The notes below the pieces were generated by a model, which worked only from the letters and a program-made list of their open reading frames with translations, did no database searches and was not told the origin of the DNA. A stretch of 64,000 nt of DNA from Vicinamibacteria bacterium (lineage in GTDB: Bacteria; Acidobacteriota; Vicinamibacteria; Marinacidobacterales; Marinacidobacteraceae), in the NCBI GenBank assembly GCA_963422395.1, contig OY729431.1, positions 928,001-992,000 on the forward strand. The letters are read 5' to 3'. Below, piece by piece: positions 1 through 64,000 of this stretch (positions within the stretch are counted from its first letter, which is position 1; each line of letters opens with the position of its first letter). Both the position numbers and the translations under genes were made by a program.

Positions 1-473
1 ACACACTCGCCGGTGAAATAGTGATGGGTGACGAACAACTCGAAGCGCTCCGGCGACAGTTCCTTCAACAGGATGCCCGCGGTGCGGAAGTTGCTGCTCT
101 CCTTGCCGGTGAAAGTCTCGTCCTGGACCCAGGCAGACACATTCATCGGAACTCGCTCCGCAAGAGGTTCCACGGCGCCTTCCGGCGTGATCAAGACCAG
201 GTTTCCCGCTCCCGAGACGACCAACAGGTCATCGCCCAGGTTTGCCATCGCTCCGCCGTTCGGCTGGCGTCTTCCAAGGGGGATCACGGTGCTTTCCAGG
301 GCGTACAGATGTGTCCGGATCTCGGATGTCTCGGAACTCCCGTTCTGTCCGTTTGGCGTCGAAGCGGCGAGATCCCGCCCCCAAGCGGCCAGAGACAGGG
401 CGGCGAGAGGAATCGCGGCGGCGGGGCCGATCGCCCTCGCCCGGCTGCCGGGGAATGCTCTCGCCGTCGTCAT
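1..473 (-). CDS. Secreted protein, partial (runs off the window), possibly glucose/sorbosone (PQQ-type) dehydrogenase-like beta-propeller
   Basis: Not in the ORF track. ATG at 473 overlaps the ddl stop (ATGA). Translates MTTARAFPGSRARAIGPAAAIPLAALSLAAWGR...GGAMANLGDDLLVVSGAGNLVLI...LFVTHHYF, with a hydrophobic signal-like N-terminus. Family call is tentative. Confidence 0.55.
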   Translation of the reverse strand, partial: MTTARAFPGSRARAIGPAAAIPLAALSLAAWGRDLAASTPNGQNGSSETSEIRTHLYALESTVIPLGRRQPNGGAMANLGDDLLVVSGAGNLVLITPEGAVEPLAERVPMNVSAWVQDETFTGKESSNFRTAGILLKELSPERFELFVTHHYFTGEC

Positions 474-1534
474 TTCTCATTCCTCTTCGCCGCGAGACGG
501 GCGATCCGGTCGCAGAGCTTTGGGAACGAGATCCCCAGAACCGCAGCCGATTGCGGTAGCAGACTGCGCGTGGTCATTCCCGGAAGGGTATTCGCTTCGA
601 GGACCGAAGGGCAGCCGCCGGCGTCCAGGCGGAAGTCCACCCGCGAGAAGTCGCGCAGGCCGAGCGCCCGATGGGTTTCGATCGCCAGTTCGCCGAGCCG
701 GCGCGCCAGCGTTTCGGGAATCTCAGCGGGGAAGATCTCCTCGGCCATCCCCGGGGTGTACTTCGCCTGGTAGTCGAAAAGGCCGGAGCGGGTGACGATC
801 TCGCCCACGCCGAGGGCCTCGGGCGTGCCGTCCGCGGCCGAGCCGATCACTCCGACAGTGAATTCGCGCCCCGGCAGGTTTTCTTCCACCAGAACCCAGC
901 GGTCGTGTAGCGCGGCTTCGGCGACCGCCTCCCGGATCGCCTCGAAACCGCCGGCCTGCCGCAGCCCCACCGAGGAGCCGACCCGTGACGGCTTGACGAT
1001 GACCGGGGAACCGAGGGCTTCGATCGCCGCGCGGCGGACGCTGGGGCCGAAGGACGAAAGGAGTGCGAAGCGGGGAGTCGGAATGCCGGCGCCGCGCAGG
1101 ACCCGCTTCGCTGCGGCCTTCTCCATGGCCAGCGCGCTGGCGAGCATTCCGCTTCCGGTGTAGGTCTTGCCCCCGAGTTCGAGGACCGCTTGGAGCCGTC
1201 CCCCTTCGCCATCGAGCCCGTGGAGCACCAGGAAGGCGAGTTCGGCTTCCCGGAGCGCCGGAAGGCGAAGGAGGCCCGGGACATCTTCGCGCTCGCGGCA
1301 GCGGGCCAGCACTTCGTCGTCGGGCGGCTCCCGGTCCACTCGCAGCGAAAGCAGCCGGCCTTCCTGTTCCGGGTCCAGCGCGCCGTGGACGGTGTCCACC
1401 ACGGTGACCTCGTGCCCGGCGATCCGCAGCGCCCGCAGCACTTCTCCGGCCCCGGCGAGCGCCACTTCCCGCTCCGGAGTGGAACCTCCGGTGATCAGCG
1501 CGATGCGAAGCGCCGGACCGTTCGCTCTCGTCAT
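470..1534 (-). CDS. ddl: D-alanine--D-alanine ligase
   Basis: Motifs GGSTPEREV, LHGLDGEGG, KPSRVGSSVG, FDYQAKY, RVDFR, LEANTLPGMT. Confidence 0.95.
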   Translation of the reverse strand: MTRANGPALRIALITGGSTPEREVALAGAGEVLRALRIAGHEVTVVDTVHGALDPEQEGRLLSLRVDREPPDDEVLARCREREDVPGLLRLPALREAELAFLVLHGLDGEGGRLQAVLELGGKTYTGSGMLASALAMEKAAAKRVLRGAGIPTPRFALLSSFGPSVRRAAIEALGSPVIVKPSRVGSSVGLRQAGGFEAIREAVAEAALHDRWVLVEENLPGREFTVGVIGSAADGTPEALGVGEIVTRSGLFDYQAKYTPGMAEEIFPAEIPETLARRLGELAIETHRALGLRDFSRVDFRLDAGGCPSVLEANTLPGMTTRSLLPQSAAVLGISFPKLCDRIARLAAKRNEK

Positions 1535-1586
1535 GTCTTCCCCGTGGACCGCACCGCAGGCGGCGGCTTTCGCGTCGGACGCCGGG

Positions 1587-3263
1587 TCACCGGTTCGGCG
1601 GCAGCAGTTCCGCCGCGATGCGGTCCAGCTTTTCGCACACTTCGGGATGGATCTCTGCCGGCGTCATCACCGCCGCCAGCCGGTGCAGATCCGTCTTCTT
1701 CTCCGGCCTGCCGACGCGCTCCAGCATCGGGAGGAGCAGTTCGTCGCTCGCCTTCACGCGCGAAAGCGCTGCGATGTCGCTGAACAGGTCGGCGTCCGGC
1801 GGTATCTGACGGCGGAAATCCCGGTCCACTTCCAGGAGTGTGGGCAGCGGCCCGCCGAGGTAGCGCTTGATCGCCTCCGGTTGCAGCAGGTAGTTCTCGA
1901 TTTCGTATCGAGTCCATCGGAGCACGACCAGACCCTGCTGCCGCGTCTCTTCCTCCGGTTCGTCGAGGTTGTCGCCGTCGAGGAGGCAGATGCCGGGAAG
2001 TTCCGGGAATTCGATGCGCAGAGCGTCGAAGTGGTGCCGCGCTTCCTTCAGGTTCCTGCCCCCGAGCCACTGGACATTCGCTCGACCGAAGAACTTCTTC
2101 GCCCGGTGGTCGAGGATTTCCGCCCACTGCCGCAGCAGCTCCTCATCGCTCCGACCTTCCAGATAGAGGATCGCGCCGCATTCCCGGGCTCGCAGGAGCT
2201 CGGTGGTAGTGAGGCGGCGCAGAGCTTCCCGAAGCCTGTTTCGATCCTGAGACGAGGCGAGCGCGCGCGGTCCGGCGCTGAAGAAGCCGATGACATCGCA
2301 AGGATCCGTGGCGTCGAGCAGGACTTCCGAATGCGTCGCGGCGATCAGCTGTCCTCGGCGCTCTTTCGCCGCGCCGCGGATGCGTTCGTACACCTGCTTT
2401 TGGAGCACCACATGCTGGTGCGCATCCGGCTCATCGAGCAGCAGGACCGAAGCGCGCCGGGCGTACAGGAAGGCCAGCAGCACGAGCACCTGCAAGGTCC
2501 CGCTTCCGGCATTCGAGAGATCGAGCGGCCGCCGGCGGCCGGGTTCGCTGTATTCGCAGACGATGTGGGGCTGTGCCGGCGAGTAGGACGGATGCCTGAT
2601 GTCGATGCCGAACATGCTGCGGACATGTCCGGTCAGTGACGACCAATCGTCCTCGCTCTCCCGGCTCGCGATTTCCCAGAGCAGGTTGCGCAGGATGTTC
2701 CCGGGCCGCCCCATCCCCACCAGGAGGTCCTGCATCCCCCGGTCGCGGCGAGGTTCGTCGCGCACGATTCCGGAGAGCGCGGGGACATGGATGACATCCA
2801 GGGCGCCGGCTGCTTCGGGAGGAAAGGAATCGAAAGCTTCTCGGGCCATGTTCTTCGCGCCCAGCGGCCTCACATACAGCAGCTCCGGATTCGCATACTG
2901 AAACTCCATTCCGCAGGACCACGGGTTGCTCGCCTCCCCGCCGTCGAGCTGGATCTCGATGCGGCGGGGAAGGCTGGTCCCCTCCTGGGTGACGCGGCGC
3001 TGCTCCCAGAGCAGGTTCATCTCCCGGAGCGGAACCGCAGTGAACCGGTCGCGGGTGACCGCGACTCCCGAGCGTTCCCGCGCCCTGCTGCCGCTGCTGC
3101 GCTGTTCGCGCCAGCGGTCGAGTCCGAATTTCCAGGTGGAAATCGCTTGCAGCAGTGTCGATTTGCCAGAGTTGTTGGCCCCGGCGAGCACGACCGAATC
3201 GCCGAGCTCGAAGACCTGCTCCTCGAACCGCTTGAAGCGGCGCAGCGTGACCCGGCGGATCAT
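1587..3263 (-). CDS. ABC/AAA_15-type ATPase fused to a TOPRIM domain (OLD-like ATP-dependent nuclease)
   Basis: N-terminal IRRVTLRRFKRF, Walker A GANNSGKST, Walker B LLLDEPDAH, H-loop ATHS, TOPRIM LYLEGRSDE and LLDGD, YEIENYLL. Confidence 0.85.
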   Translation of the reverse strand: MIRRVTLRRFKRFEEQVFELGDSVVLAGANNSGKSTLLQAISTWKFGLDRWREQRSSGSRARERSGVAVTRDRFTAVPLREMNLLWEQRRVTQEGTSLPRRIEIQLDGGEASNPWSCGMEFQYANPELLYVRPLGAKNMAREAFDSFPPEAAGALDVIHVPALSGIVRDEPRRDRGMQDLLVGMGRPGNILRNLLWEIASRESEDDWSSLTGHVRSMFGIDIRHPSYSPAQPHIVCEYSEPGRRRPLDLSNAGSGTLQVLVLLAFLYARRASVLLLDEPDAHQHVVLQKQVYERIRGAAKERRGQLIAATHSEVLLDATDPCDVIGFFSAGPRALASSQDRNRLREALRRLTTTELLRARECGAILYLEGRSDEELLRQWAEILDHRAKKFFGRANVQWLGGRNLKEARHHFDALRIEFPELPGICLLDGDNLDEPEEETRQQGLVVLRWTRYEIENYLLQPEAIKRYLGGPLPTLLEVDRDFRRQIPPDADLFSDIAALSRVKASDELLLPMLERVGRPEKKTDLHRLAAVMTPAEIHPEVCEKLDRIAAELLPPNR

Positions 3264-3411
3264 GGAGCCGGCCGATCGGTTCTCTCCGACGTTCCGTTCG
3301 CTTTGCGGTCCGGGAGGATCACCGGGGGAGCGTATCCGCGCGGCGGCGGCGCCCGCCCCATCCCTCTGCTAACCCGCCCCGGGCCCGCCCCGGGAGGGAG
3401 TGCGGCCGGTC

Positions 3412-4095
3412 TCAGCCCCGCGGGGCGGATCCGAACGATTTCCGCAGCCCGGGGGCGTTGACGATCAGTTCTCCGAGATCGGTCATGGAGTTCTCGATGG
3501 CGATCTCTGCTGCGGCGGAGAGGAGCTTCGCCCCGGCTCCGCAGCTCATGCCGCTCCCGGCCTGGACCGCATTTCCCATCACGACCTCGCGGAACAGGAG
3601 GCCGTCTTCGGTGAAGACCGACACGGCGAGAGAGAGTGCTGCCGCCGCCTCCATCCGGAAGAGCCCGCCTCCGGTGAGAGTCACATCGAAGACTTCCGCC
3701 CGCACCGCGATCACCGTGTCGATCCCCAGACGGTCCATGTCCTCGCGCGCTATCCGGGATTCGCTCAGCCGCACCTCCTCGATCAGGGGCTCGAGCGTGC
3801 CCAGAATGGATTGTTCGAGCGCATCCCGGGCGTCGATCGGGTAATTGGAGTCGGCGCAACGGTTGTCTCGGGCGATCATCCCGGCATTGCGCCACAGTTG
3901 GTCGCCGTCCACGAAGATGCCGGCGCGCGCCGGGAGCCGGTCCTCGAACGCATACGCCTGATGCGACGGGGCGGCGCGGACCGCCACCCGATAGGTGCAA
4001 GAAGCCGCGGTGAGCACGGCGAGGCCGAGCGCCAGCATTCCGCAGCGCTTCGCCAGCCGGGTGAGTCGGTCGGGACTGGGGCTGATCCTGTTCAT
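3412..4095 (-). CDS. Hypothetical lipoprotein
   Basis: C-terminal part of ORF 3412..5961. ATG at 4095 with purine-rich RBS (GAGGAAGAG). Signal peptide ends LAVLTAAS-C (lipobox-like). Confidence 0.7.
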   Translation of the reverse strand: MNRISPSPDRLTRLAKRCGMLALGLAVLTAASCTYRVAVRAAPSHQAYAFEDRLPARAGIFVDGDQLWRNAGMIARDNRCADSNYPIDARDALEQSILGTLEPLIEEVRLSESRIAREDMDRLGIDTVIAVRAEVFDVTLTGGGLFRMEAAAALSLAVSVFTEDGLLFREVVMGNAVQAGSGMSCGAGAKLLSAAAEIAIENSMTDLGELIVNAPGLRKSFGSAPRG

Positions 4096-4202
4096 CTCGA
4101 TCTCTTCCTCCCGCTGCTGCGGGGTCGGGTGATGCGGCGACCGCTGCCGACCGCCGGTGCGGAGATGCGCAACCGCCGTGCCCGAAGGCTGCTTCGAGAG
4201 CC

Positions 4203-5660
4203 TCACAGGGTCAGCACCAGGCGCACCGGTTCCGGCAGCGGCGCCGGCCGGGTGAGCAGGCTTGCTCCGGCGAGGACCGCGAATCCGGCCGCCATGGCCA
4301 CTGCGGCCGCCGGGGCTTCGAGGCCGGGAGCGAGGAGTTCGAGCCCGAGCAGCACGAGCGGGCCTGCCGCCATCGAGGCGGCCGCCGCCCGGGCGGTGAC
4401 CCGCTGCCAGGAGAGCCCGAGGAGAAGCGCGGGAGTGAGCGCCGCCGCGAACGCTCCGAAACCGAGGGTCCCCAGAAAGGCGATCAGGCCGCCTCCGGCC
4501 AGGTGGACGGCCGCCACCCCGAACGCCGCCAGACCGACGAGCAGCGATCCGGCGCGCGCCGTACCGAGGCCGGCGGACTCCAGCCTTCCCAGCGCCCGAG
4601 GCAGGTCTCGCGCCAGCACCGCCGCTCCGAGGTTCAGGAAGGCGTCGCTCGTGGACATGATGGCGGCGAGGACGGCCGCGGTGAGCAGGCCGGTGAGCAG
4701 GCCGGGGGTCCCCGGAAGCGCGAGCGCCGCCAGCGCGGCGTCGTCGGGGTGGCCGAGCGGGCCAAGACGCCCGTCGGCGGTGAAGACGAGCACCGCCGTT
4801 CCGAGGCCGATCCACACCAGCAGGCTCAGCCCCTGCGCCCCGCCGATGACCATCGGCAGGTAACGCAGCGCATCCGGGCTCCGGAGCATCAGGAACTTGT
4901 GGAGCAGATGAGGCTGGCCGAGCGTCCCGAGCGAGAACAGCAGCAGCAGGCCGAACCCCCGGGCGGGCGCCATCGAGCCGAGCGGGTGCAGCAGCTTCGC
5001 TCCGTCCGGGCCGGCAGCCGAAAGCGCCTCCGCTGCCCCCCAGGGTCCCGAGACCGCCGCCATCGCCCAGACGAAGACGACTGCCGCCGCCCCGGCCATC
5101 ACGATCCCCTGGAGCACATCGGTGTTCACCGACGCGGTCATCCCCCCGGCCAGCGAGTAGGCGAGCACGACCCCGGCCCCGAGCACCAGGGCGTGGAACA
5201 GTCCGATTCCGGGGAAGGCGAACTGTGCGGCGAGAGCGAGCGCCGCGAGCTGGACCCCGAGATAGATGATGCTGCCGATGAGGATCCCGCCGGCGGCCAG
5301 CCCGGCGGCGAGCCGCGCCCCCGGTTGCGCCCCGAAGCGGAAGGCGAGGACTTCCGGCAGGGTCAGCGCGCCGCTCGCCGCGGCCGTCAGCGCCAGCCGC
5401 CGCCCGACCGTGCGACAGAGCAGCGCTGCGGTGAAGCCGGCCGGGACGACGATGAACAGCGATCCGAGTCCGACCTGTCCCGTCAGGCCCGGACCGCCGA
5501 GGAACACGAAGCCGCTGAACGCCGATGCCGCCACCGCCAGCCCGGCGCGGAGAGCTCCGAGGCGGCGCCCGGCGGCGAAGAAGTCGGCGGCGTTCCCGGT
5601 GCGGCGGAGCGCGAGGAGCCCCACCGCGAGCGTCACCAGCAGGAGGATCGCCGGGATCAT
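4203..5660 (-). CDS. Sodium:solute symporter (SSS, PutP/PanF-like)
   Basis: DFFAAGRRLG, SAFSGFVFLGGPG, GGMTASVNTDVLQG, LAAIMSTSD, many TM helices. ATG at 5660 overlaps the upstream stop. Confidence 0.9.
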   Translation of the reverse strand: MIPAILLLVTLAVGLLALRRTGNAADFFAAGRRLGALRAGLAVAASAFSGFVFLGGPGLTGQVGLGSLFIVVPAGFTAALLCRTVGRRLALTAAASGALTLPEVLAFRFGAQPGARLAAGLAAGGILIGSIIYLGVQLAALALAAQFAFPGIGLFHALVLGAGVVLAYSLAGGMTASVNTDVLQGIVMAGAAAVVFVWAMAAVSGPWGAAEALSAAGPDGAKLLHPLGSMAPARGFGLLLLFSLGTLGQPHLLHKFLMLRSPDALRYLPMVIGGAQGLSLLVWIGLGTAVLVFTADGRLGPLGHPDDAALAALALPGTPGLLTGLLTAAVLAAIMSTSDAFLNLGAAVLARDLPRALGRLESAGLGTARAGSLLVGLAAFGVAAVHLAGGGLIAFLGTLGFGAFAAALTPALLLGLSWQRVTARAAAASMAAGPLVLLGLELLAPGLEAPAAAVAMAAGFAVLAGASLLTRPAPLPEPVRLVLTL

Positions 5661-6112
5661 CGCCGGGGGTTCCTTGCGGAGTTCCGGTTCCGCAGGCGGC
5701 GCAGCGCCTTCGGGTCCGGAGGCCGGAAGGACAGCGCGAACCCGGCGCCGGTGAGCACCAGCGGCACTCCGAAGACGCCGAGGAGCAGCCCCCAGAGCGC
5801 GAGCGGCAGGCCTGCCGGACCCGTTGCTGACGGCGAGGCTGCGAGCAGCGTTCCCGCCCCGAGCGAGAGCGCGAAGAGGGCGCCCGACCACGCCCCCCAG
5901 GAGCTCCGGCTATCCGAAGAGCCGCAGGCCCAGACCGCGGCGACCGCGGCGGCGACCGCAATTGCCATCGCCGCCGCCCCGCCGGCGAGCAGGGCGCCCC
6001 CGGCGAGGCCGATCAAGAGAGCGGCGGCCGGCGGGCGCCGGGAACCCCGGGGAGCGAGACCGGCGTTACCGGCGGCGCGGGGACTTCGCTCATGCGAGAA
6101 GCTCTCGTTCAT
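5657..6112 (-). CDS. Small multi-TM membrane protein translationally coupled to the SSS transporter
   Basis: Hydrophobic ORF whose TGA overlaps the SSS ATG. Start codon uncertain. Confidence 0.6.
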   Translation of the reverse strand: MNESFSHERSPRAAGNAGLAPRGSRRPPAAALLIGLAGGALLAGGAAAMAIAVAAAVAAVWACGSSDSRSSWGAWSGALFALSLGAGTLLAASPSATGPAGLPLALWGLLLGVFGVPLVLTGAGFALSFRPPDPKALRRLRNRNSARNPRR

Positions 6113-6126
6113 CGATATCACATATC

Positions 6127-6285
6127 GTGCGTACGATCATCGCTCTCCCGGACGAACAGGCGAAACGGCTGGCCGAAGTGTGCCGGAGACAGGAGATTTC
6201 CCGAGCCGAGGGGGTCCGGCGCGCGGTCGCGCGGTACCTCGACGAACACCGACTGTCCGGCTCGTGCCGTTGGACGAGGCGGTGA
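6127..6285 (+). pseudogene. CopG/RHH antitoxin (VapB-like), C-terminus lost
   Basis: GTG at 6127: MRTIIALPDEQAKRLAEVCRRQEISRAEGVRRAVARYL (RHH pattern), then runs out of frame into toxin sequence. Confidence 0.75.
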
Positions 6286-6433
6286 GCGAGCTGGCGGTCG
6301 TCATCCGGCGCAAGCATCGCATTCGCCTCCCCGACGCCATCGTCTGGGCCAGCGCCACCGCATCGAAGCCCTGCTCGTGACCCGGAACACTCGGGATTTC
6401 CCGGCGGACGATCCGGGCGTCCGGATGCCGACT
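6255..6433 (+). pseudogene. PIN-domain (VapC) toxin remnant, N-terminus missing and frameshifted
   Basis: VRLVPLDEAVSELAVVIRRKHRIRLPDAIVWASA, continuing in another frame as LLVTRNTRDFPADDPGVRMP. This is the typical VapC C-terminal half. Confidence 0.8.
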
Positions 6434-6461
6434 CGATCTGAAGTCGGTCTTCTCCCGCCTC

Positions 6462-6496
6462 CCGATTCATCTGGACACTGGACTGGGGAGACGGAC
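6462..6496 (-). repeat. About 35-bp dispersed repeat (copy 1), possible IS terminus
   Basis: Reverse complement GTCCGTCTCCCCAGTCCAGTGTCCAGATGAATCGG nearly matches 50521..50556. Confidence 0.75.
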
Positions 6497-7100
6497 CCGG
6501 GCGATCTCCACGAACCGGCAGAGGGCGTTCGCGAGGCGCATCTGCCACGGGGTGCGGCACTCGGGCGCCAGCAGGGCGGGGCTCGCGACGATGGCGGCGA
6601 CGCAGCGGGCACGGGAGGTGGCCACATTCAGCCGGTTCAGACCGTAGTGGAACTCCATCCCGCGAGGCGCGTCCTCGGCGGTCGAATCGTCCGAATGGCG
6701 GCGGAACATTCGCGGTTCCAGTTGCACAACCGGCAGTGGTCCACCGGCTCGGGACAGGTGTCCGGCGGGTCCTGGACCCGTTCGAGAAACTGCTGCTTCA
6801 CCGAGCGGAGGAAGGCGGCGTAGTGGTCGTAGCGGAAGGTTTCCTTTCTCGGGTTCCTCCCCTGAGCACGAGGAACATGACCTCGGGCGCGGCTCCTTGC
6901 ACCCCGGCGAGCAGTTCGGAATAGACGCTGAGCTGCAAGACGGCGCCGGCCGTCGCGGAGCGGGCCAGCTTGGCGTCCATCGCTGCGTATGACCAGGCCC
7001 CCAGCAGGCTCGGACGCGCCATGCGGAGCAGGAAGTCGGGGGACCCGTCCCAGGCGTCGGCTGCGAGGAATCCTGTCCCGCCGCCGCTCAGAGTGCTCTC
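6467..7100 (-). pseudogene. TM0106-family RecB-like nuclease/SF1 helicase remnant
   Basis: N-terminal nuclease piece (PDFLLRMARPSLLGAWSYAAMDAKLARSATAGAVLQLSVYSELL; after frameshift ETFRYDHYAAFLRSVKQQF...PEPVDHCRLCNW) joined directly to the extreme C-terminus (APRGMEFHYGLNRLNVATSRARC...QMRLANALCRFVE). Confidence 0.8.
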
Positions 7101-7511
7101 GCCGGCGGATGGTCGCCGGCGCGGCTCGGGATCTCGCCCTCTACCGGCACGAGGCGCTGGATTTCGGCGATCCGGTTCTGCGTGATGTTCACGGTGTCGA
7201 GATGATGGAGGAAAACCCATTGCTCCCGTGGGGATTCGAGGAAGTCATCACCGAAGAGTCGTTCCATCGGCTCGAATCGGCGTTTCTTCGTTTCATGAGA
7301 CCGATTGCAAGCGTTTCCTCATGATCCTGCGTATGGCTGGATTCCGTGGATGCGTCCAGGATTCGTTCACGGAATACCGTCGATTTCGGCGACATCCTCT
7401 ATCGGACCTTGGGCGCACAGCGCACGAATCCGGCGCACCGGCTGTATGGGGGGCGCTCCCAGCATTCCAGACTACTGGCGGAGGGATAGCATTCCTCCCG
7501 TGGGTTTTTCG

Positions 7512-8366
7512 ATGCCGGGCGGGCCTCGCACACTTCCCGTCTTTTCCGCTCTCGCCCTCGCGGTGCTCGCTTGCAGCGCTCCGCAGGCGCCGCCCGAGCC
7601 GGCACCCTCCCTCGGGCCCGAAACAGTGGCCGGCTGGCGGATGGTGGACCTGAGCCATCCCTACGGGGAAGACACGCTCTACTGGCCGACCGACGCCCGC
7701 GGCTTCGAGCTCGCTGCGCTGGCCGAAGGAAGGACGAAAGCGGGGTTCTTCTATGCCGCGAAGGAATTCGCCTCCGCCGAGCACGGGGGGACCCACCTGG
7801 ATGCGCCGTATCACTTCGACGAAGACGGCGCGTTCGTCGGGGAGATCCCGCTCCGCCGGCTGATCGCCCCCGGGGTGGTGATCGATGGAAGCGCTGAGGC
7901 CGAGGCCGATCCGGACTATCGGATGAGCGCCGAGGACATCCGCGCCTGGGAGGAAATCCACGGCGCGATTCCTGCCGGGGCTGCGGTGCTCTTCCGCACC
8001 GGCTGGGCGGACCGCTGGCCCGATCCGCTCGGCTATCTGGGCGGCGGCGAGCCGGGCAGTGCGGCGAACCTGCACTTCCCGGGGCTCGGCGAGGACGCGA
8101 TGCGCCTCCTGGCGGCGCGCGAAGTCGGCCTCGTCGGGATCGACACCGCGAGCGTGGATCACGGGCCCTCCACCGATTTCATCGTCCACCAGCTGGGCGG
8201 TGCCGCCGGAATTCCCAATCTGGAGAATGTCGGGGACCTCTCGGAGCTTCCGCCGACGGGTTTCCTGCTGATCGCCCTGCCGATGAAGATCGAGAAGGGC
8301 ACCGGCGCTCCGGTCCGGATCGTGGCGCTCATTCCGCCCGGCAGAGCCGGATCGGATTCGAACTGA
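7512..8366 (+). CDS. Cyclase family (kynurenine formamidase-like) metal hydrolase, lipoprotein
   Basis: EHGGTHLDAPYHF, VGIDTASVD, LPMKIEKGTGAPVRIVA. Lipobox AVLAC. Confidence 0.9.
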   Translation: MPGGPRTLPVFSALALAVLACSAPQAPPEPAPSLGPETVAGWRMVDLSHPYGEDTLYWPTDARGFELAALAEGRTKAGFFYAAKEFASAEHGGTHLDAPYHFDEDGAFVGEIPLRRLIAPGVVIDGSAEAEADPDYRMSAEDIRAWEEIHGAIPAGAAVLFRTGWADRWPDPLGYLGGGEPGSAANLHFPGLGEDAMRLLAAREVGLVGIDTASVDHGPSTDFIVHQLGGAAGIPNLENVGDLSELPPTGFLLIALPMKIEKGTGAPVRIVALIPPGRAGSDSN

Positions 8367-50421: not shown

Positions 50422-50520
50422 CACAGCAGCCTGTGGAACCCGAGCCGAGATCCTGAAGGAATCCTTCAGGGAGCAAGAGAGGCCGCGCGGGTGCCTCTCC
50501 CTGAACGCCTCATCGCAGGA

Positions 50521-50556
50521 GTCCGTCTCCCCCAGTCCAGTGTCCAGATAGATCGG
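50521..50556 (+). repeat. About 35-bp dispersed repeat (copy 2)
   Basis: GTCCGTCTCCCCCAGTCCAGTGTCCAGATAGATCGG nearly matches the reverse complement of 6462..6496. Confidence 0.75.
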
Positions 50557-50662
50557 AGAGCGAGAGAGTCGCTGCCTCGTGAAGGGGATCCCCCTTCCCC
50601 GGCAGCGGTTTGCGAACCTGGAGCGCGGTAGATTCCCCCGCACGCAAGGGACGGACTCCAAG

Positions 50663-52720
50663 GTGAGCGAGAGCGGGGCGGGGCTTCTCTCCGGGCGCCC
50701 GGGGAGCCGGCTCTGGGTGTTCGGCCCCGTAAACGATCTGCTGCTGCTGATCGCGACTCCGGCGCTCATCCTGCCGGTGGCGTTCCTGGTTCAGGGCCGG
50801 GAGGCCGCTGCCGCCGTGGGTCTGCTGGTGGCCGGTTTCGGCGCCCTCGGCCACCACCTGCCGGGGATGATGCGCGCCTACGGGGACCGGGCGCTCTTTT
50901 CGAGGTTCCGCGCGCGATTCCTGTTCGCGCCGCTCGCCTTCCTCGCTGCCGCGCTCGGCTTCGCGCTGCACGGGTTGAACGGGGTGTCGCTCCTGGTGCT
51001 GGTCTGGGGGGTCTGGCACGGAGCGCTGCAGGTGTACGGCTTCCTCAGGATCTACGACGCCCGAGCGGGCGCCTTCGGCCGTTGGAACTCGCGCCTCGAC
51101 TTCGCGATGTGTCTCGGGTGGTTCGGCTTCGGCGTCCTCCATTCCCCGGGCCGCCTCGGTGAGCTGCTGGAGCTGTGGTACGCCCTCGGCGCGCCCCTGG
51201 TTTCCCCGGAGTGGTTCTTCGGATTTCGCGGGGGTTTCGATCTGGCCCTCGCCGGGCTCACCGCGCTGTTCGTCTTCCGCGCCGCGCGGGACCTGCTCGC
51301 CGGACGCGGACAGCACCCGGTGAAACTGCTGGCCGCCGCGATGTCCTTCGGGTTCTGGTGGTGGTGTTCGGTTGCGGTCCCTCACGCGGTTCTCGGCGTC
51401 GCGCTCTTCGAGGTCTTCCACGATGTGCAGTACCTGGCCATCGTCTGGGCGTTCAACCAGCGCCGCGCCCGCGAAGGCGGCGCCGGACGTTTCACCCGCG
51501 TTCTCTTCGGCGGGGGGAGAGCGATGATCTTCCTCTATGTCGGCCTCGTCCTCGGGTACGGGCTCCTGCGCTTCGTTCCCGAGGTGGTATCCGCGCCCGC
51601 AGTGGGGCGGTTCGTCTTCGCGGTCGTGGCAGCCTCGACGATGCTCCATTTCTACTTCGATGGCTTCCTCTGGAAGATCCGGGAGGCCGACACCGGGCGA
51701 GCGCTCGGCATCCATCGGGCTCCGAGGGCGGTTCCCGCCGCCGCCGTCCGGAGCGCGATCCTCACCCCCCACGCGGCGAAGTGGGCCGGGCTCTTCGCCC
51801 TGCCGCTCGTCCTGCTGTTCGGGCTCGAAACCCGTGCCGCGGCAGAGCCGCTCGGGAAGCGGTACGAGAACCTGACCGCCATCGTTCCCGACAGCGCCGA
51901 ATTCCAGCACAACCTGGGATTCGCCTACCGGGAGGCGGGGCAGCTCGAAGCGGCGGAAGCTCGCTACCGCCGGGCCCTCTCGATCGACCCCGGCTATCCG
52001 CGCGCTCACGCCAACCTGGGAGTCGCGCTGCTGTCGCGAGGAGCGTGGGAGGAGGCGGAGACCTCGCTTCGGCGGGCGCTGGAACTCGACGAAGGCTATG
52101 CCGCCGCGCACCATAACCTGGGCTTCATCCAGGAACGGGTCGGCGCCCGGCTCGCCGCGGAACGCCACTACCGCCGGGCGGTCGAGCTGGACTCCGAACT
52201 CGTCGAGCCGCGGCTGGGGCTCGCCCGGATGCTGCTCGCCGCCGACGATGTTTCCGGTGCCGAGCCCGTGCTCGAAGCGGCGCTGCGGGTGGATCCCGGC
52301 GCCTTCGAGGCCCACCGGAATCTCGGCCTGATCCGGGCACGGCGCGGCGATCACCCCGCGGCGCTCGCCCATCTCGAAGCATCGCTGGCCGCGGCGCCGG
52401 ACGATCCGGCGGCGCTCGAGACCGCCGCCTGGATCCTCTCGGTCACTCCGGAATACCGCGATCCGGAGCGCGCGGTCCGCTACGCGCGGCGCGCCTCCGA
52501 ACTGGCCCGCCATCTCGACCCTTCGGCTGCGGACACCCTGGGCGCGGCACTCGCCGCCGCTGGAGATTTCGAGGGGGCGCTCGTCGCCGCGAGGACTGCC
52601 GCGGCACTGGCCCTCGATGCCGGAGACCGCGGCCTCGCCGGGGAGATCGCGGCGCGGATCGCACTCTACGAAAGGGGGCGGCCGGTGACCCTTTCTCCTC
52701 GCGGGGGAGCCACCCGGTGA
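50663..52720 (+). CDS. Multi-TM membrane protein with His motifs fused to C-terminal TPR repeats
   Basis: TM region with GHHLPG, WHGALQ, FHDVQY and LHFYFDGFLWK, followed by several TPRs (HNLG...A...YRRAL..DP). Start uncertain (50579 or 50663). Confidence 0.8.
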   Translation: MSESGAGLLSGRPGSRLWVFGPVNDLLLLIATPALILPVAFLVQGREAAAAVGLLVAGFGALGHHLPGMMRAYGDRALFSRFRARFLFAPLAFLAAALGFALHGLNGVSLLVLVWGVWHGALQVYGFLRIYDARAGAFGRWNSRLDFAMCLGWFGFGVLHSPGRLGELLELWYALGAPLVSPEWFFGFRGGFDLALAGLTALFVFRAARDLLAGRGQHPVKLLAAAMSFGFWWWCSVAVPHAVLGVALFEVFHDVQYLAIVWAFNQRRAREGGAGRFTRVLFGGGRAMIFLYVGLVLGYGLLRFVPEVVSAPAVGRFVFAVVAASTMLHFYFDGFLWKIREADTGRALGIHRAPRAVPAAAVRSAILTPHAAKWAGLFALPLVLLFGLETRAAAEPLGKRYENLTAIVPDSAEFQHNLGFAYREAGQLEAAEARYRRALSIDPGYPRAHANLGVALLSRGAWEEAETSLRRALELDEGYAAAHHNLGFIQERVGARLAAERHYRRAVELDSELVEPRLGLARMLLAADDVSGAEPVLEAALRVDPGAFEAHRNLGLIRARRGDHPAALAHLEASLAAAPDDPAALETAAWILSVTPEYRDPERAVRYARRASELARHLDPSAADTLGAALAAAGDFEGALVAARTAAALALDAGDRGLAGEIAARIALYERGRPVTLSPRGGATR

Positions 52721-54873
52721 AGAACACGACGAAGGTCGGCCTTCTCTTCTCTCGACTGCGCCCCCTGGCGCCCGCGGCGGTACTGGCCGGCGGCCTCTTC
52801 CCCGCTTCCGCGGGGAGTGCGCAGCAGGAAGAGATGGCCCCGCGCCACCGCGCCTTCCTCGAAGAGGAGGCCGCCTATATCGCTTCCGAAATCGAACGCG
52901 AGGCATTCGCCGCCCTATCGGGCGAGGACACCCGCGATGGCTTCATCGAAGCGTTCTGGCAGCGGCGCGATCCGAACCCCACCACCCCGGAGAACGAGTT
53001 CCGGGAGGAGCACTTCGCCAGGATCGCCTACGCGAACGAGTTCTACGGAAGGGATACCGGGCGTTCCGGCTGGCGCACCGACCGCGGCCGGTTCCACATC
53101 CTCCTGGGGCCACCGCGCATCACGGAGGACTTCTCCTACTCGAACTTCCTCTACCCGGCGGAGCTTTGGTTCTACAACGACTCGGCGCTCCGGGAGCGCG
53201 GTGTTCCGGCGTTCTTCTATCTGCTCTTCTTCCGGCCCTTCGGGGCTGGGGAGATGCGCCTCTACAGCCCGGTCGAAGACGGCCCGCAGGCGCTGCTCGT
53301 CGCCCCCGAGCCGTTCCATCGGGGAGACTTCCGGCAGAACATCCAAGCGGCCTACGACCAGCTCCACGAGATCAGCCCCGAACTCGCCTCGGCCGCGCTC
53401 TCCTTCCGGACCGACGAAGGTACGAACTTCGGTGACCTCCGCTCCTTCGGCACGGTGGCGCTCCTCGACGAGATCTACCGGTCGCCGACCTTCGGCATCG
53501 ACACCAGCTATGCCTCGCGCTTCGATCTCGGCAGCGTCGAAAGCGACTACCTCTTCCACCATGTTCCGAGCGCCGGGTTCCACCAGGTGCTGCCGGGGCC
53601 GGGCGGCTACTACCTGCACTGGGCCATCGAGATTCCGCCGGAATCGGTGATCGTGGTGCGGGATCCGGACATCGGTCGCTATGGCGCGGTGTTCCTCGCC
53701 TCGATCGAGATCTCCTCCCGCGAGGACCCGGAAAGAGTGCTCTATTCCGATCGGGCGGAGGCATTCTTCGCGGTGTCCGAGGAAGAAGCGGCGGCGCTCA
53801 CCCGCCCGTACCTGTTTCGCGGCACCGTGCCGGTGATTCCGGGGTCGCATGACTTGCGGGTCATCGTGCGGAACCGTGCCTGTCCGAGCCGCCGCGAAGA
53901 GGATTGCCGGCGCGCCTATACGCTGCTCGACGGGGCTTTCGAGGTCCCCGAGCTGCAGTTCGATACTCCGGACCTGACGGCTCCGGTACTCGCCTGGTCC
54001 AGCGAGCTGCTCGGCGGCGAGCCTCTCTACCGGGCCTATCGATTCGGACGCCGGATCCTTTCCCCGAATCCGGCGGGCATCTTCGCTTCCGGAGAGACCC
54101 TCTATCTGCTCGCCGAGCCGCTCAATGCGCCGGAAGGCGCGCGGGTCGCGTGGAGTGTGGTTCCAGATCCCGACGGGTTGGCTTCGGAGGAGCTGCTGCC
54201 GCCGCTGCCGCGCGAAGGCGCTGTTCCCGCACATGCCGAACGCGAGGGGCCGCTGGTGTTGAGGCAGCCGCTCGAAGGGTTGGTCGGCGGGCGCTACCTG
54301 GCGGTGATCCGACTCCTCAGCGCGTCCGACGCGGAGCTCGCGCGCCGGGAGGTCCGGTTCCAGATCACTCCGCGCGCAGTGGTGGCCCGGCCTGCGGTGG
54401 ACGGCGGCCTCGGGGAGAGCCGCCCCGAGCTGGCCGGAGCGCCCGAACTCGCGCGGGCACGGCAATGGGAGGCTGCCGGGGACCCCGCGATGGCCCGCGC
54501 CTTCGCCGAGGCGGCGGTGCGGGTGGGGCCCAACCTGGCGGCGGCGCGCGAACTGCTCGCCGCGCATCGGCTGCGGGAGGACGATCCGGCCGGTGCCGCG
54601 GCGTTGCTCGGCCCGGTGTTCGAGGCCCATCCGGACCGCTATGACGCCGCCCGCCGCCTTGGCGAGGCCCGGGTTCGAAGCGGTGCATTCGAGGCGGCGT
54701 TAGCTCCCCTCAACCGGGCGCTATCGCTGCGCGCGCCGGACGCTGACCTGCTGGTGCTGTTGGCCACCGCCCATCTCGTCCTCGGCGACGAGGAACGCGC
54801 CGGCGAATTCCTCGATCGGGCGCAGGCCCTCGATCCCGAAAACGAGCGCGTCTTGGCGCTCCGCCGCCGCTGA
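52717..54873 (+). CDS. GWxTD-domain protein with TPR
   Basis: FIEAFWQRRDPNPTTPENEFREEH, GWRTDRG, C-terminal TPRs. GTGA overlap with the upstream gene. Confidence 0.88.
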   Translation: MKNTTKVGLLFSRLRPLAPAAVLAGGLFPASAGSAQQEEMAPRHRAFLEEEAAYIASEIEREAFAALSGEDTRDGFIEAFWQRRDPNPTTPENEFREEHFARIAYANEFYGRDTGRSGWRTDRGRFHILLGPPRITEDFSYSNFLYPAELWFYNDSALRERGVPAFFYLLFFRPFGAGEMRLYSPVEDGPQALLVAPEPFHRGDFRQNIQAAYDQLHEISPELASAALSFRTDEGTNFGDLRSFGTVALLDEIYRSPTFGIDTSYASRFDLGSVESDYLFHHVPSAGFHQVLPGPGGYYLHWAIEIPPESVIVVRDPDIGRYGAVFLASIEISSREDPERVLYSDRAEAFFAVSEEEAAALTRPYLFRGTVPVIPGSHDLRVIVRNRACPSRREEDCRRAYTLLDGAFEVPELQFDTPDLTAPVLAWSSELLGGEPLYRAYRFGRRILSPNPAGIFASGETLYLLAEPLNAPEGARVAWSVVPDPDGLASEELLPPLPREGAVPAHAEREGPLVLRQPLEGLVGGRYLAVIRLLSASDAELARREVRFQITPRAVVARPAVDGGLGESRPELAGAPELARARQWEAAGDPAMARAFAEAAVRVGPNLAAARELLAAHRLREDDPAGAAALLGPVFEAHPDRYDAARRLGEARVRSGAFEAALAPLNRALSLRAPDADLLVLLATAHLVLGDEERAGEFLDRAQALDPENERVLALRRR

Positions 54874-54919: not shown

Positions 54920-54949
54920 GAGCCGGGGAGGGTTGGCCCCCGGCTAGAA

Positions 54950-58928: not shown

Positions 58929-58955
58929 GGGGAGGTTCTCGACGATTCCGGCAGG

Positions 58956-60199: not shown

Positions 60200-61630
60200 A
60201 TGAGCCAAACGAGCGAGGCCGCGTTCGAGGTGGTGATCCTCGGGAGTGGTCCGGGGGGCTATGTGGCTGCTCTGCAGGCGGCCGCCGCCGGCCTTCGGAC
60301 TGCGGTAGTCGAGAAGGACGAGAAATTCGGCGGCACCTGCCTCCATGTCGGTTGTATTCCGAGCAAGGTGTTTCTCCATACTGCCTCGCTGCTCGACGAA
60401 ATCCGGACCGCGAAGACTTTCGGAGTCACGGTTTCCGAGCCGAACCTCGACTGGGGCGGCTTGCAGCGCCGGAACCGCAGGGTCATCGGCAAGCTGGCGG
60501 GCGGAGTGGCGCTGTTGTTGCGGCGCGCTGGAGTCGCATGCTTTCGGGGTACCGGCCGACTTGCGGGTCCGGGCCGGGTCGAGGTGCAGCCTCCCGAAAC
60601 GGCCAGACCGCCGGAGGCGGCCGTCCGGGTGCTCACCGCGCCCAACATCATCATCGCCACCGGCTCCGAAGCGCGCACGCTTCCCTTCCTGAACCTGGAT
60701 GGGGACCGGATCGTGACGAACGCCGAAATGTTCGATCTGCCGGAGTGTCCGGCCCGGCTCGGGATCATCGGCGCGGGCGCCGTCGGCGCCGAGTTCGCCT
60801 CGATGTTCCGCGCTTTCGGGACCCAGGTGGATCTCTTCGAGGCGCTGCCGCGGGTTCTGCCGCTCGAGGACGCCGAGGTCTCCGAAGTCGTCGAAAAGGC
60901 GTTCCGCCGCCGCCGAATCGGGGTGAAGACCGGCGTCGCCGTCGAAGGGGCCGAGCCCTCCGGATCCGGGGTCGCGGTTCGCTACCTTGCGGGCGGCCGA
61001 GTGGAATGCGCGGAGTACGACCGGCTGCTGGTGGCGGTGGGCAGGGCACCTCGCACCGCCGGGATCGGTCTCGAAACCGTCGGACTCGAGCCCGACAGCG
61101 GCGGGGTGCTCGCGGTGGACGACAGCTGTCGGACCCAGGCCGCCGGCGTTTTCGCGATCGGAGATGTGGTGGGAAGCGCACAGCTCGCCCATGTGGCTTC
61201 CGCCGAGGCCGAAGCGGCCGTGGCGGCTATTTCCGGAGACGAGCCGCGGCCGCTCCGCCGGGACCGGATGCCCGCCGCCACCTATTGCGTGCCCGAAGTG
61301 GGTTCCGTCGGGCTGACCGAGGCGGCGGCGCTCGCCGAGAGCCGCGAGCTGCGGGTGGGCCGGTTTCCCTTCGCCGCCAACAGCAAGGCGAACATCCTGG
61401 GCGATCTCACCGGGTTCGTGAAGGTGGTGGCCGACGCCCGCTATGGCGAGGTGATCGGAGTGCATATCGTGGGTCCTCACGCCACCGATCTGATCGCCGA
61501 GGCGGTGGTGGCGATGGAGCATGAAGCCACGCTGGAATCTTTCGCCCGGAGCGTCCATCCGCATCCCACGCTGTCCGAAGCGGTGGCGGAAGGGGCGCTC
61601 GCCGCTCTCGGGTCGCCGCTCCACGCCTGA
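60200..61630 (+). CDS. lpdA: Dihydrolipoamide dehydrogenase (E3)
   Basis: GSGPGGY, GGTCLHVGCIPSK, GAGAVGAEFA, LAHVAS, HPHPTLSE. Confidence 0.96.
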   Translation: MSQTSEAAFEVVILGSGPGGYVAALQAAAAGLRTAVVEKDEKFGGTCLHVGCIPSKVFLHTASLLDEIRTAKTFGVTVSEPNLDWGGLQRRNRRVIGKLAGGVALLLRRAGVACFRGTGRLAGPGRVEVQPPETARPPEAAVRVLTAPNIIIATGSEARTLPFLNLDGDRIVTNAEMFDLPECPARLGIIGAGAVGAEFASMFRAFGTQVDLFEALPRVLPLEDAEVSEVVEKAFRRRRIGVKTGVAVEGAEPSGSGVAVRYLAGGRVECAEYDRLLVAVGRAPRTAGIGLETVGLEPDSGGVLAVDDSCRTQAAGVFAIGDVVGSAQLAHVASAEAEAAVAAISGDEPRPLRRDRMPAATYCVPEVGSVGLTEAAALAESRELRVGRFPFAANSKANILGDLTGFVKVVADARYGEVIGVHIVGPHATDLIAEAVVAMEHEATLESFARSVHPHPTLSEAVAEGALAALGSPLHA

Positions 61631-61640
61631 CACACAGCCC

Positions 61641-62375
61641 GTGGACCAAGCCCCCTGGCCGCCGGTCTGGCGGCTTTCCCTGCCGAGGCTCGAGTACCGC
61701 GCGGCTTGGGCGTTGCAGCGAGAGCTCGTGGAGCGCCGCCGGCGCGGTGCGATCCCGGATGTTCTCTTGGTCACCGAGCATCCGCCGGTTTTCACCCTCG
61801 GCCGGACCGCCCTTGCCGAACATCTGCTCATGGCGCCGGCACGGCTCGTCGAGAGCGGCGCCGAAGTCGTCGAGACCGACCGCGGAGGCGATGTGACCTT
61901 CCACGGCCCCGGCCAGCTGGTCGCATACCCGATCTTCGATCTCGCGGGCTGGAGAAAGGATCTCCACGCCTATCTCCGGGCGCTCGAGCAGGTGGTCCTG
62001 GATACGGCGGCGGGTTTCGGGGTGCCGGGGTGCCGGCGCGAGGGTTTCACCGGGGTCTGGTGCGGGGGGGAGAAGCCGCCCGCGAGCGAACCGCGCAAGC
62101 TGGCTTCGATCGGGGTTCGCGTTTCGCGCTGGATCGCGTCGCACGGATTCGCGCTCGATGTGGCCACCGATCTCGAGTGGTTCTCCCACATCGTGCCCTG
62201 TGGGATCCGAGGCTGCCGGGCGACCACGTTGGAAGCGGAGGCCGGGCGGCGGCTTTCTCTCGCCGAGGTCACGGACGGGCTCGTGGAGGCGTTCGGAGCT
62301 GTGTTCCGGCGTCGGGTCGAACCGGCGCCCTCCCGGTTCGCCGCGGCGCTCGCCGGACGCGGGAACGCGGCGTAA
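61641..62375 (+). CDS. lipB: Lipoyl(octanoyl) transferase
   Basis: EHPPVFTLG, DRGGDVTFHGPGQLVAYP, KLASIG, SHGFAL, IVPCGI. GTG start assumed. Confidence 0.93.
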   Translation: MDQAPWPPVWRLSLPRLEYRAAWALQRELVERRRRGAIPDVLLVTEHPPVFTLGRTALAEHLLMAPARLVESGAEVVETDRGGDVTFHGPGQLVAYPIFDLAGWRKDLHAYLRALEQVVLDTAAGFGVPGCRREGFTGVWCGGEKPPASEPRKLASIGVRVSRWIASHGFALDVATDLEWFSHIVPCGIRGCRATTLEAEAGRRLSLAEVTDGLVEAFGAVFRRRVEPAPSRFAAALAGRGNAA

Positions 62376-62641: not shown

Positions 62642-62694
62642 ACAGCCGCTGCGGGGGGCGCAGGCGGTCAGGCAGCCGACCGGCCGATCCGACT

Positions 62695-63675
62695 TTGCCG
62701 ATCACGTACCTGGAGGCGATCCGACGGGCGCTCCGCTCCGAAATGGAGCGCGACCGAAGCGTCATCCTGCTCGGGGAGGACATCGGGTGCTACGGCGGCG
62801 CCTTCCGGCTCACCGAAGGGTTCCTCGAGACCTTCGGCCCCGGACGAGTCTTCGATACCCCGATCAGCGAGGAGGGATTTACCGGGGTCGCGGTGGGGGC
62901 GGCGCTTCAGGGCTTTCGACCGATCGTCGAGTTCCAGTTCCTGGACTTCATCGCCAGCGCGTTCAACATGGTGACGAATTTCGCCGCGAAGAGCCGCTAT
63001 CGCACGGGCCTCGCGGTTCCGCTGGTGCTGCGCGGGCCGGCGGGCGCGGGAGTCCGCGCGGGACCGTTCCATTCGCAGAGTCCCGAAGCCCACTTCACCC
63101 ACACCCCGGGCGTCAAGGTGGCGGCGCCGGCCAGCGTGGCCGACGCGGCGGGGCTGCTGCGCGCTGCCATCCGGGACGACGATCCGGTTCTCTTCATCGA
63201 GCACAAGCGCCTCTACCGGAGCCTCCGGATCCCGGAGGCGGAGTTCCGGAGAGCGCCCGAGGTGGTTCCCCTCGGCCGGGCGGCGCTTCGTCGTCGAGGA
63301 AGCGATCTCACGATCGCCGCGTACGGAGGCGCCGTCGGATTGGCGGCAGAGGCGGCCGATCAGCTGGCCGGCGAGCGGATCGAGGCCGAAGTCCTCGACC
63401 TGCGCTGCCTCGTTCCGCTGGATCGCGAGGCGCTCTTCGAATCCGTCCGGCGCACCAGCCGGCTGGTGGTGGTGCATGAGGACAACCTCACCGGCGGCTT
63501 CGGAGCCGAGATCGCGGCGCTCGCTGCGGAGTACCTCTTCGCCGATCTCGACGCCCCGATCGTGAGGATCGCGGCCGCCGACGCTCCCGTTCCCTATGCG
63601 CCCGCACTCGAGGATGCAGTGCTGCCGACGGCCGCCCGGGTCGTCGAGGCGGCGCAGCGCCTGATGCGTTACTGA
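62695..63675 (+). CDS. 2-oxoacid dehydrogenase E1 beta subunit (PdhB/BkdA2-type)
   Basis: ITYLEAI, GEDIG, DTPISEEG, EFQFLDF, GPFHSQ, FIEHKRLY, LDAPIVRI. TTG start. Confidence 0.93.
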   Translation: MPITYLEAIRRALRSEMERDRSVILLGEDIGCYGGAFRLTEGFLETFGPGRVFDTPISEEGFTGVAVGAALQGFRPIVEFQFLDFIASAFNMVTNFAAKSRYRTGLAVPLVLRGPAGAGVRAGPFHSQSPEAHFTHTPGVKVAAPASVADAAGLLRAAIRDDDPVLFIEHKRLYRSLRIPEAEFRRAPEVVPLGRAALRRRGSDLTIAAYGGAVGLAAEAADQLAGERIEAEVLDLRCLVPLDREALFESVRRTSRLVVVHEDNLTGGFGAEIAALAAEYLFADLDAPIVRIAAADAPVPYAPALEDAVLPTAARVVEAAQRLMRY

Positions 63676-63687
63676 GCCGGGAGCTAG

Positions 63688-64000
63688 CTGTGACCTTGCG
63701 GTAGGTTGTTCACACGAACCCGATGCCCGGAACTTGTTGACGGATCGGTGTCCGAAGCATTCGACGCTGTCGAAGACGCGGCGCCGGATTGCGACGGAGG
63801 CACACGCGGAGGTTTCGTTTGGGTTCTGCGGCGGCTGGAAGAGGCGGGATTGCTACGGGGTCGGAGGGTAGGAGTCGATGGAACGACGCTGCTGGCGAAC
63901 GCCTCGATGCGAGGGATCGTCCGGCGGGATACCGGGGAGGGGTACCAGGAGTTCCTGCGCCGTCTGGCGGAGGAATCGGGGATCGAGACGCCGAGTCGGG
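63688..64000 (+). mobile_element. IS1182-family transposase remnant (5'-deleted, frameshifted, runs off the window)
   Basis: CTAG then IS end CTGTGACCTTGCGGTAGG. PKHSTLSKTRRRIATEAHAEV, frameshift near 63813, then VWVLRRLEEAGLL...VDGTTLLANASMRGIVRRDTGEGYQEFL. Confidence 0.85.

Follow-up and report, generated by a model that had tools for sequence, protein, structure and literature searches.

Why should the palindrome ACGT be almost missing from a long stretch of bacterial DNA? The question is raised by 64,000 nucleotides (hereafter the window) from the genome of a Vicinamibacteria bacterium of the family Marinacidobacteraceae, labelled G000 here, in which they occupy positions 928001–992000 of a single contig (OY729431.1) of 2,908,270 bases. 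An earlier note on the same letters had listed five ACGT sites against about 175 expected from composition, and had seen in this deficit the footprint of an ACGT methyltransferase or restriction system. All five sites are present, together with a sixth at 51487 that had been overlooked, and the deficit itself is borne out and far exceeds chance, as base composition at 68.9% GC predicts 182.6 sites and a second-order Markov model 86.1. TCGA, CATG and GTAC, which the note had called common, occur 574, 157 and 107 times. The window is one part of an avoidance of ACGT that runs through the whole genome and is confined to certain lineages. We put at roughly 45% the probability that this avoidance was imposed by a long-resident Type II restriction-modification system, for which a two-gene operon encoding a Dam-family methyltransferase and a putative HNH-type endonuclease is the candidate (Table 1).

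The deficit is observed directly in the whole genome. It contains 561 ACGT sites (558 without the terminal overlap of the contig), compared with 8484 expected from composition and 4130 from the Markov model. The resulting Markov ratio of 0.136, which shows that the depletion survives this correction, is the lowest among all 256 tetranucleotides, lower even than that of CTAG (0.279); the corresponding interaction odds ratio is 0.11. All 16 hexamers of the form NACGTN are low, and the avoided unit is therefore the four-base core. Short intergenic spacers, with 10 ACGT sites where 176 are expected (odds ratio 0.10), are depleted as much as genes. The depletion amounts to a factor of 15 over the whole genome, 30 in the window and as much as 40 in the relative G003. 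The terminal overlap mentioned above became apparent because the contig start recurs at 2,872,301, and positions 2,815–7,527 are exactly duplicated at 2,875,114–2,879,826; this recurrence indicates an overlap of ~36 kb and a true genome size of about 2.872 Mb.

Depletion on this scale leaves its mark on codon choice, which was analysed in a crude but frame-safe gene set of open reading frames (ORFs) with at least 120 codons, a GC content at third codon positions (GC3) above 0.8 and GC3 > GC1 > GC2. This set comprises 1270 ORFs and covers 62% of the genome. Overall the C-ending share is 0.81 for Asn, 0.71 for Asp, 0.75 for His and 0.75 for Tyr; before Val it falls to 0.089, 0.046, 0.045 and 0.054, respectively. 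In counts, NAT-GTN (the hyphen marks the codon boundary) occurs 3056 times and NAC-GTN 189 times, while elsewhere NAC is favoured 3.3 to 1. Such a switch from NAC to NAT before Val had been claimed for the window from a few quoted codon strings. The strings were all found, at 18875–18905, 18650–18670 and 26228–26250, the names mgtE and bshA given to the genes that carry them are upheld by TIGR00400 and TIGR03999 matches, and the switch holds for the 28 genes of the set that lie in the window, where NAC-GTN occurs once and NAT-GTN 85 times, compared with 1335 NAC and 360 NAT codons in other contexts. Other codons respond as well. The Thr codon ACG drops from 22–54% to 1.7% ahead of codons that start with T, and the Arg codon CGT from 6–7% to 1.6% following codons that end in A.

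The effect reaches the proteins. Compared with other preceding residues, the odds that Ile rather than Val follows are higher after Asn, Asp, His and Tyr by a factor of 1.57 in G000 and of 2.00 in the relatives G003 and G008 taken together; in ten non-depleted relatives the factor is 1.12. The shift from Val to Ile after these residues, which the note had predicted, is thus present.

The sites that are left are not evenly spread. Seventeen of the 288 bins of 10 kb, many of them lower in GC, hold 159 of the 558 sites, i.e., 28% of the sites in 6% of the genome. The dense bins at 1,780,001–1,790,000, 2,170,001–2,190,000, 2,720,001–2,730,000 and 900,001–910,000, which are mostly of lower GC, carry 11–18 sites per 10 kb, whereas the median bin has 1. 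These bins are likely DNA acquired recently, from which the sites have not yet been purged. The bin at 1,780,001–1,790,000 carries a Type I hsdM-like gene, and that at 900–910 kb sits immediately ahead of the window.

How far the trait extends was examined by counting ACGT in 20-kb stretches of relatives; with G000, 21 of the 28 family genomes are covered. Strong depletion was observed in G003 and G008 of genus g4 (17 sites where 669 are expected, and 66 where 657 are expected) and in G006 of genus g7 (32 of 239), and a mild one in G009 of genus g5 (148 of 222). Sixteen other sampled family members are not depleted, with interaction odds ratios of 0.86–1.44; two samples of 3–4 kb only gave 0.63 and 1.73. 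Nor was depletion seen in 17 genomes that belong to other families within the order and the class. The ACGT depletion is lineage-specific.

Which gene could impose it? The note had placed the responsible gene outside the window, and in agreement with this no match to the methyltransferase families PF00145, PF01555, PF02384, PF07669 and PF02086 was found in the window. The candidate operon lies far beyond it, between housekeeping genes, with a radical-SAM gene on one side and a DUF885 gene on the other. Its two genes overlap by 4 nt and follow the orthodox Type II layout of separate, adjacent methyltransferase and endonuclease genes. The methyltransferase matches Pfam PF02086 (4.1e-33), carries the motif IV sequence DPPY at residue 192, scores 108.5 bits against TIGR00571, slightly below the cut-off of 114.85, and has Dam-type enzymes as its closest solved structures. 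For the predicted endonuclease, a winged-helix N-terminus is followed by a putative HNH-type core, in which a DH...N arrangement and CxxC pairs are conserved; across 20 homologues D128-H129, N156 and four Cys residues never vary. One homologue bears the source name HNH endonuclease. A Pfam search of the endonuclease gave no HNH match, a sequence search of the PDB gave no match, and its structure model, with a predicted local distance difference test (pLDDT) score of 50, is too poor to use. The operon itself contains no ACGT site.

Within the family, the distribution of the methyltransferase follows that of the depletion. The three strongly depleted relatives, G003, G006 and G008, each have a homologue of it with 57–59% identity, and the mildly depleted G009 has one with 44%. 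Among the other 23 family genomes searched, five have only paralogues of 27–34% identity and 18 have none at all; the 16 of these 23 that were sampled are all non-depleted. In G000 and G006 the whole operon occupies the same locus, with the order radical-SAM, methyltransferase, endonuclease and DUF885 conserved, and the two endonucleases are sisters in the tree. In G009 both genes are present in convergent orientation. In G003 and G008 the methyltransferase gene has a different location, where its neighbours are a gene for Vsr and an ORF of 268 residues that has no annotation; a C5 methyltransferase is found 5–7 kb from it. Between these two genomes (loci L138 and L139) the Dam-family gene is flipped while both flanks are conserved at 70–76% DNA identity, which looks like a gene-sized inversion in a fixed locus. 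The radical-SAM protein of G000 is 79–82% identical to that of the non-depleted genus g2, 80% to that of G006 and 75–77% to those of G003 and G008. Judged from this one protein, G000 is as near to g2 as to G006, and the trait and the methyltransferase probably changed together more than once, through repeated gains or losses that co-varied with the depletion.

Table 1. Features of the window and candidate or rejected genes elsewhere in the genome of G000 (positions refer to the window unless marked as genome positions).
Feature	Position	Strand	Remarks
ACGT-depleted DNA, whole window	1–64000		6 sites vs 183 (composition) and 86 (Markov)
Leftover ACGT	3289–3292		not in crude gene set
mgtE	18038–19498	+	TIGR00400, 9.7e-102; GAT GTG and GAT GTC at 18884–18901; TAT GTG at about 18662
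bshA	26147–27286	+	TIGR03999, 5.4e-145; GAT GTC CAT GTG at 26237–26248
Leftover ACGT in bshA	26784–26787	+	nAC-GTn frame (GAC GTG); the one NAC-GTN out of 86 positions with such a dipeptide in the window genes
Leftover ACGT	46163–46166		not in crude gene set
Leftover ACGT	51487–51490		nnA-CGT frame of crude ORF 50579–52717 (+); frame uncertain
Leftover ACGT	62226–62229	+	ACG-T frame of crude ORF 61521–62372
Leftover ACGT	62704–62707	+	ACG-T frame of crude ORF 62695–63672
Candidate operon, two genes	genome 2,016,689–2,018,991	+	1.09 Mb beyond the window
Dam-family (D12 class) predicted N6-adenine methyltransferase	genome, about 2,017,340–2,018,266	+	PADLOC MTase_II PDLC03341, 1.7e-76
Predicted endonuclease, 242 residues	genome 2,018,266–2,018,991	+	PADLOC REase_II PDLC03566, 9.7e-52
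Only C5 methyltransferase of the genome (Dcm-type)	genome 676,652–678,139		Vsr gene next

The frame of the site at 51487 is uncertain because a longer ORF is also present on the opposite strand. In this region (50510–52906) two long ORFs overlap on opposite strands, of 798 residues (minus) and 713 residues (plus), and the crude caller took the plus one.

The reading frames in which ACGT can fall provide a handle on how the sites were lost. The note had offered either deamination of 5-methylcytosine (m5C) or avoidance of the site; a restriction or methylation footprint is right in kind, but neither alternative is singled out by the following results. The interaction odds ratio was taken as codon choice in the ACGT-forming context versus other contexts, per frame, and the raw value was divided by a baseline from 52 loci of ten non-depleted relatives. 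For nAC-GT the raw, baseline and corrected values of G000 are 0.019, 0.840 and 0.023; for ACG-T they are 0.047, 0.491 and 0.096, and for nnA-CGT 0.252, 1.099 and 0.229. In G003 and G008 combined, the raw values in the same order of frames are 0.007, 0.027 and 0.258, and the corrected ones 0.008, 0.055 and 0.235. The values thus spread ~10-fold in G000 and ~30-fold in G003 and G008. Where C>T or G>A is silent, the depletion is 2- to 30-fold deeper than in nnA-CGT, in which both CpG transitions are non-synonymous and which is still down 4-fold. With additive log-fitness at mutation-selection equilibrium, the three frames should show equal odds ratios; equilibrium selection alone does not predict the unequal ones.

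Nor does pure deamination of the CpG predict the pattern: it would leave nnA-CGT untouched or feed the Cys codon TGT and the His codon CAT, but this frame is 4-fold low and in G000 its products are not raised. In G000 the odds ratios are 0.97 for nnA-TGT and 0.87 for nnA-CAT. In G003 and G008 nnA-TGT is raised with an odds ratio of 3.10, from 13 sites only. ACA-T is not above baseline (odds ratio 1.39 versus 1.73), Met-T is not raised (ratio 1.009), and ATGT in spacers stands at 0.95, the baseline there being 0.61 but poorly known. The excess of ATGT and ACAT that the note had predicted does exist, with a genome-wide Markov ratio of 1.585 for each, but it does not separate deamination from avoidance and is not diagnostic, because NAT-GTN is the only synonymous way of removing NAC-GTN. 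Three other sources of the frame pattern were rejected. The weaker depletion of nnA-CGT does not come from heterogeneity, being equally weak or weaker in the genes of highest GC3 and outside the dense bins. Flank preference does not explain it either, as AAC-GT (C-ending fraction 0.089) and GAA-CGT have a common flank and are ~12-fold apart. Nor do wrong reading frames, as the GC1 > GC2 filter removes antisense ORFs.

Taken together, the data read as two components, selection on the site plus a transition-biased route of loss. The component shared by all frames, about 0.23 in both lineages, behaves like selection on the site. The second factor, ~10 in G000 and ~30 in G003 and G008, is tied to the C>T and G>A exchange and would reflect a transition-biased route. 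Deamination of m5C is the textbook candidate for this factor, and a non-equilibrium history is the alternative.

On the preferred reading, an ACGT-specific Type II system would have been resident in the lineage for long. New or unmethylated ACGT sites would be a liability, and lineages that lose them would be favoured. In genes the losses would proceed by NAC>NAT before Val, by ACG>ACC or ACT before codons that start with T, and by CGT>CGC or CGG after codons that end in A, while Val would be partly replaced by Ile after Asn, Asp, His and Tyr; at silent CpG transitions extra sites would leave by the transition-biased exit. The operon would be the part of this scheme that recognises ACGT. A bolder version, in which the operon is a new adenine-methylating ACGT system of a large uncharacterised family, the 10- to 30-fold extra loss at CpG transitions proceeds without m5C by an undescribed process, and Val to Ile dipeptides are reshaped across the proteome, appears distinctly unlikely to us.

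Several observations weigh against giving this role to the operon. Searches of its proteins against NCBIfam, Pfam and PDB yielded no recognition-site specificity. Six further genomes of Acidobacteriota, from outside the family, carry homologues of the endonuclease at 42–61% identity and are all undepleted (interaction odds ratio 0.80–1.10). A search of 61 genomes detected no endonuclease homologue in G003 and G008, in which the depletion is strongest; the unpublished genome G036 was among the 61, but none of the claims made here depends on it. The methyltransferase of G000 is equally near to those of G003 and G008 (59%) and to some metagenome copies (60%). Its DPPY motif predicts adenine methylation, which gives no cause for the CpG-transition bias and the frame asymmetry (0.023, 0.096, 0.229), and the ACGT methyltransferases named in PMC10423294 and PMC10113651 are m5C enzymes. 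The endonuclease family as a whole is very large, with 6426 relatives at E ≤ 1e-5. At metagenome loci with an endonuclease homologue, the methyltransferase is adjacent in 74 of 78, and the pooled ACGT interaction odds ratio of 0.86, compared with 0.96–1.15 in four control sets, leans slightly towards depletion; among long loci, 5 of 24 have an odds ratio below 0.6, compared with none of 47 controls, which were unmatched for taxon or GC. In this set, GATC moves as much as ACGT, and the comparison is a weak one. Pooled tetra- and hexanucleotide statistics of 93 loci with the Dam/HNH system show no single palindrome that stands out, and the endonuclease tree shows no clade structure in the ACGT odds ratio save for G000 with G006. 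The undepleted carriers would be compatible with the proposed role if the system had resided in them only briefly, or if specificity differed among members of the family.

GTAC is absent, or almost so, on the metagenome contigs L179, L187 and L188 (also L172 and L189), which carry Dam/HNH homologues. This hints at either a second avoided palindrome or a variable specificity within the family.

In another explanation, a C5-cytosine methyltransferase specific for ACGT, acting alone or together with a nuclease, makes the central C hypermutable, m5C deamination turns the sites into ATGT and ACAT, and the Dam/HNH operon is a bystander. It would account directly for depletion that is deepest where C>T and G>A are silent, and for the ATGT and ACAT excess. 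Moreover, it has a precedent in Helicobacter pylori, where ACGT is reported as scarce and unstable, with transitions skewed to ATGT and ACAT and a frame bias (PMC10423294), and M.MaeII is given as an m5C enzyme (PMC10113651). As the note had proposed, we searched the genome for C5 methyltransferases and Vsr. One C5 enzyme was indeed found, with a Vsr gene beside it, but it does not track the depletion. G003 has an orthologue with 68–70% identity, the G008 homologue reaches only 45% and is divergent in its target-recognition region, and none was found in G006, the assembly of which is only 86% complete; C5 methyltransferases and Vsr are common among non-depleted family members. In other phyla, 50 of 51 loci with C5 homologues (45–61% identity) are undepleted, the depleted one coming from the close relative G003, so that this enzyme was rejected as the agent. 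It is also paired with a repair nuclease in a Hma-type defence locus (L019, 676,095–686,000), where it and Vsr neighbour an ATPase of the HmaC/DUF499 kind, two ORFs without annotation lying in between; the literature on Hma/DUF499 and MANTIS gave no relevant recognition site. Considering also the 4-fold depletion in the non-silent frame, the Cys (TGT) and His (CAT) codons that are not raised in G000 and the ACA-T that does not exceed its baseline, we find this explanation doubtful, albeit a serious contender. A further ACGT-specific restriction system, unrecognised or since lost, with the avoidance as its trace, is unlikely in our view. Avoidance without a cognate system is described as common and read as the trace of lost systems (PMC4687349), G003 and G008 are without an HNH endonuclease homologue, unannotated conserved ORFs flank their methyltransferase, and G000 has many further methyltransferase genes, one of which, of the β-class, is frameshifted. 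Nevertheless, the 3056 NAT-GTN against 189 NAC-GTN, where NAC is otherwise favoured, are far from the unconstrained codon state, which points to a pressure that is current or very recent, and no other methyltransferase that was tested follows the depletion, apart from a 541-residue γ-class enzyme that does so only in part.

The methyltransferases in question can be listed briefly. Three β-class genes at 1,690,060, 610,471 and 1,385,516 were rejected on account of orthologues that are widespread in non-depleted genomes, and neither the gene at 839,945 nor the frameshifted β-class Type II gene follows the depletion. The latter, at 497,366–498,105, is broken into two parts, which correspond to successive halves of a single PADLOC model, and is probably a pseudogene. 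The γ-class orphan of 541 residues (5,021–6,643) occurs in G003 and G008, was not found in G006, and lies between housekeeping genes without an adjacent nuclease; as an agent it is a minor possibility. Two more explanations seem hardly credible. Methylated motifs cause consensus errors in some long-read data, and base-calling or polishing errors of this kind could have turned ACGT into ATGT or ACAT in the assemblies, some relatives being represented by single-contig assemblies of the long-read kind. In that case all frames should suffer alike, with Arg replaced by Cys or His and Thr by Met, but a 10-fold frame spread was found, such changes are not raised, and the pattern recurs in four separate assemblies, one of them of 410 contigs. 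Selection at the RNA level, e.g., through an ACGU-cutting mRNA interferase, was considered solely for the strong codon-frame effects, and it is countered by the spacers, which are depleted like genes.

The phenomenon is of a known kind, a restriction or methylation footprint, and the present case is extreme and phyletically sharp. In the systematic study by Rusinov et al. (2015; PMC4687349), avoidance is reported as an effect of orthodox Type II systems alone, and it grows with their time of residence. The present case is alike in that a short palindrome falls strongly below its Markov expectation in some relatives and not in others, an orthodox methyltransferase and endonuclease pair is present, and recent islands keep the site; it differs in its extreme magnitude and in the protein-level shift from Val to Ile, and the operon is only a candidate for the ACGT site. 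The decay of ACGT in H. pylori concerns the same tetranucleotide, with the same scarcity, the same ATGT and ACAT and a silent nAC-GTn frame; there the losses are ascribed to m5C deamination via M.Hpy99XI, with a second-frame bias, and 53–295 ACGT per Mb are given across populations (PMC10423294). Unlike in H. pylori, where the m5C enzyme is known, no C5 enzyme could be assigned to ACGT here, the candidate methyltransferase is predicted to be adenine-specific, and there is a selection component in the non-silent frame. The likeness to systems of the MaeII, HpyCH4IV and TaiI type, which recognise ACGT, is by description only. TaiI and Tsp49I cut behind the site (ACGT^), in the manner of HNH enzymes of the NlaIII kind. 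Unlike the adenine methyltransferase predicted here, M.MaeII makes m5C, and MaeII cuts A^CGT (PMC10113651). The literature search found no report of ACGT avoidance in Acidobacteriota or sponge symbionts.

These observations have consequences beyond the window. A constraint of only four bases, related to defence, prevails over a codon preference of 3 to 1 at thousands of positions and alters the usage of amino-acid pairs. Strong, mild and absent depletion within one uncultured Acidobacteriota family provide a natural series for the rate at which avoidance builds up, and the operon, as a candidate for a new pair of ACGT-specific enzymes, can be put to the test. Moreover, the density of ACGT marks recently acquired DNA in these genomes, which is useful for their annotation.

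A second palindrome is affected in part of the family. In G003 and G008, AGCT is also scarce (20 sites where 669 are expected and 43 where 657 are expected, counted at loci L022, L108, L109, L240, L241 and L295–L314), likewise CAGCTG and GAGCTC, and it is normal in G000 and G006. The pandoravirus, in which AGCT is reported as absent (bioRxiv 10.1101/712018), is alike in that one tetranucleotide palindrome is nearly gone from a large genome; it is a eukaryotic virus, whereas a bacterial lineage with candidate restriction-modification genes is concerned here, of which G003 and G008 are also short of AGCT. GTCGAC is low in every sampled family member, ACGT-depleted or not (239 in G000 versus 1088 from the Markov model), and CAGCTG is scarce both in G009 and in the non-depleted relatives (20 of 81), a feature that G000 does not share. 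The family carries several independent footprints of palindrome avoidance side by side.

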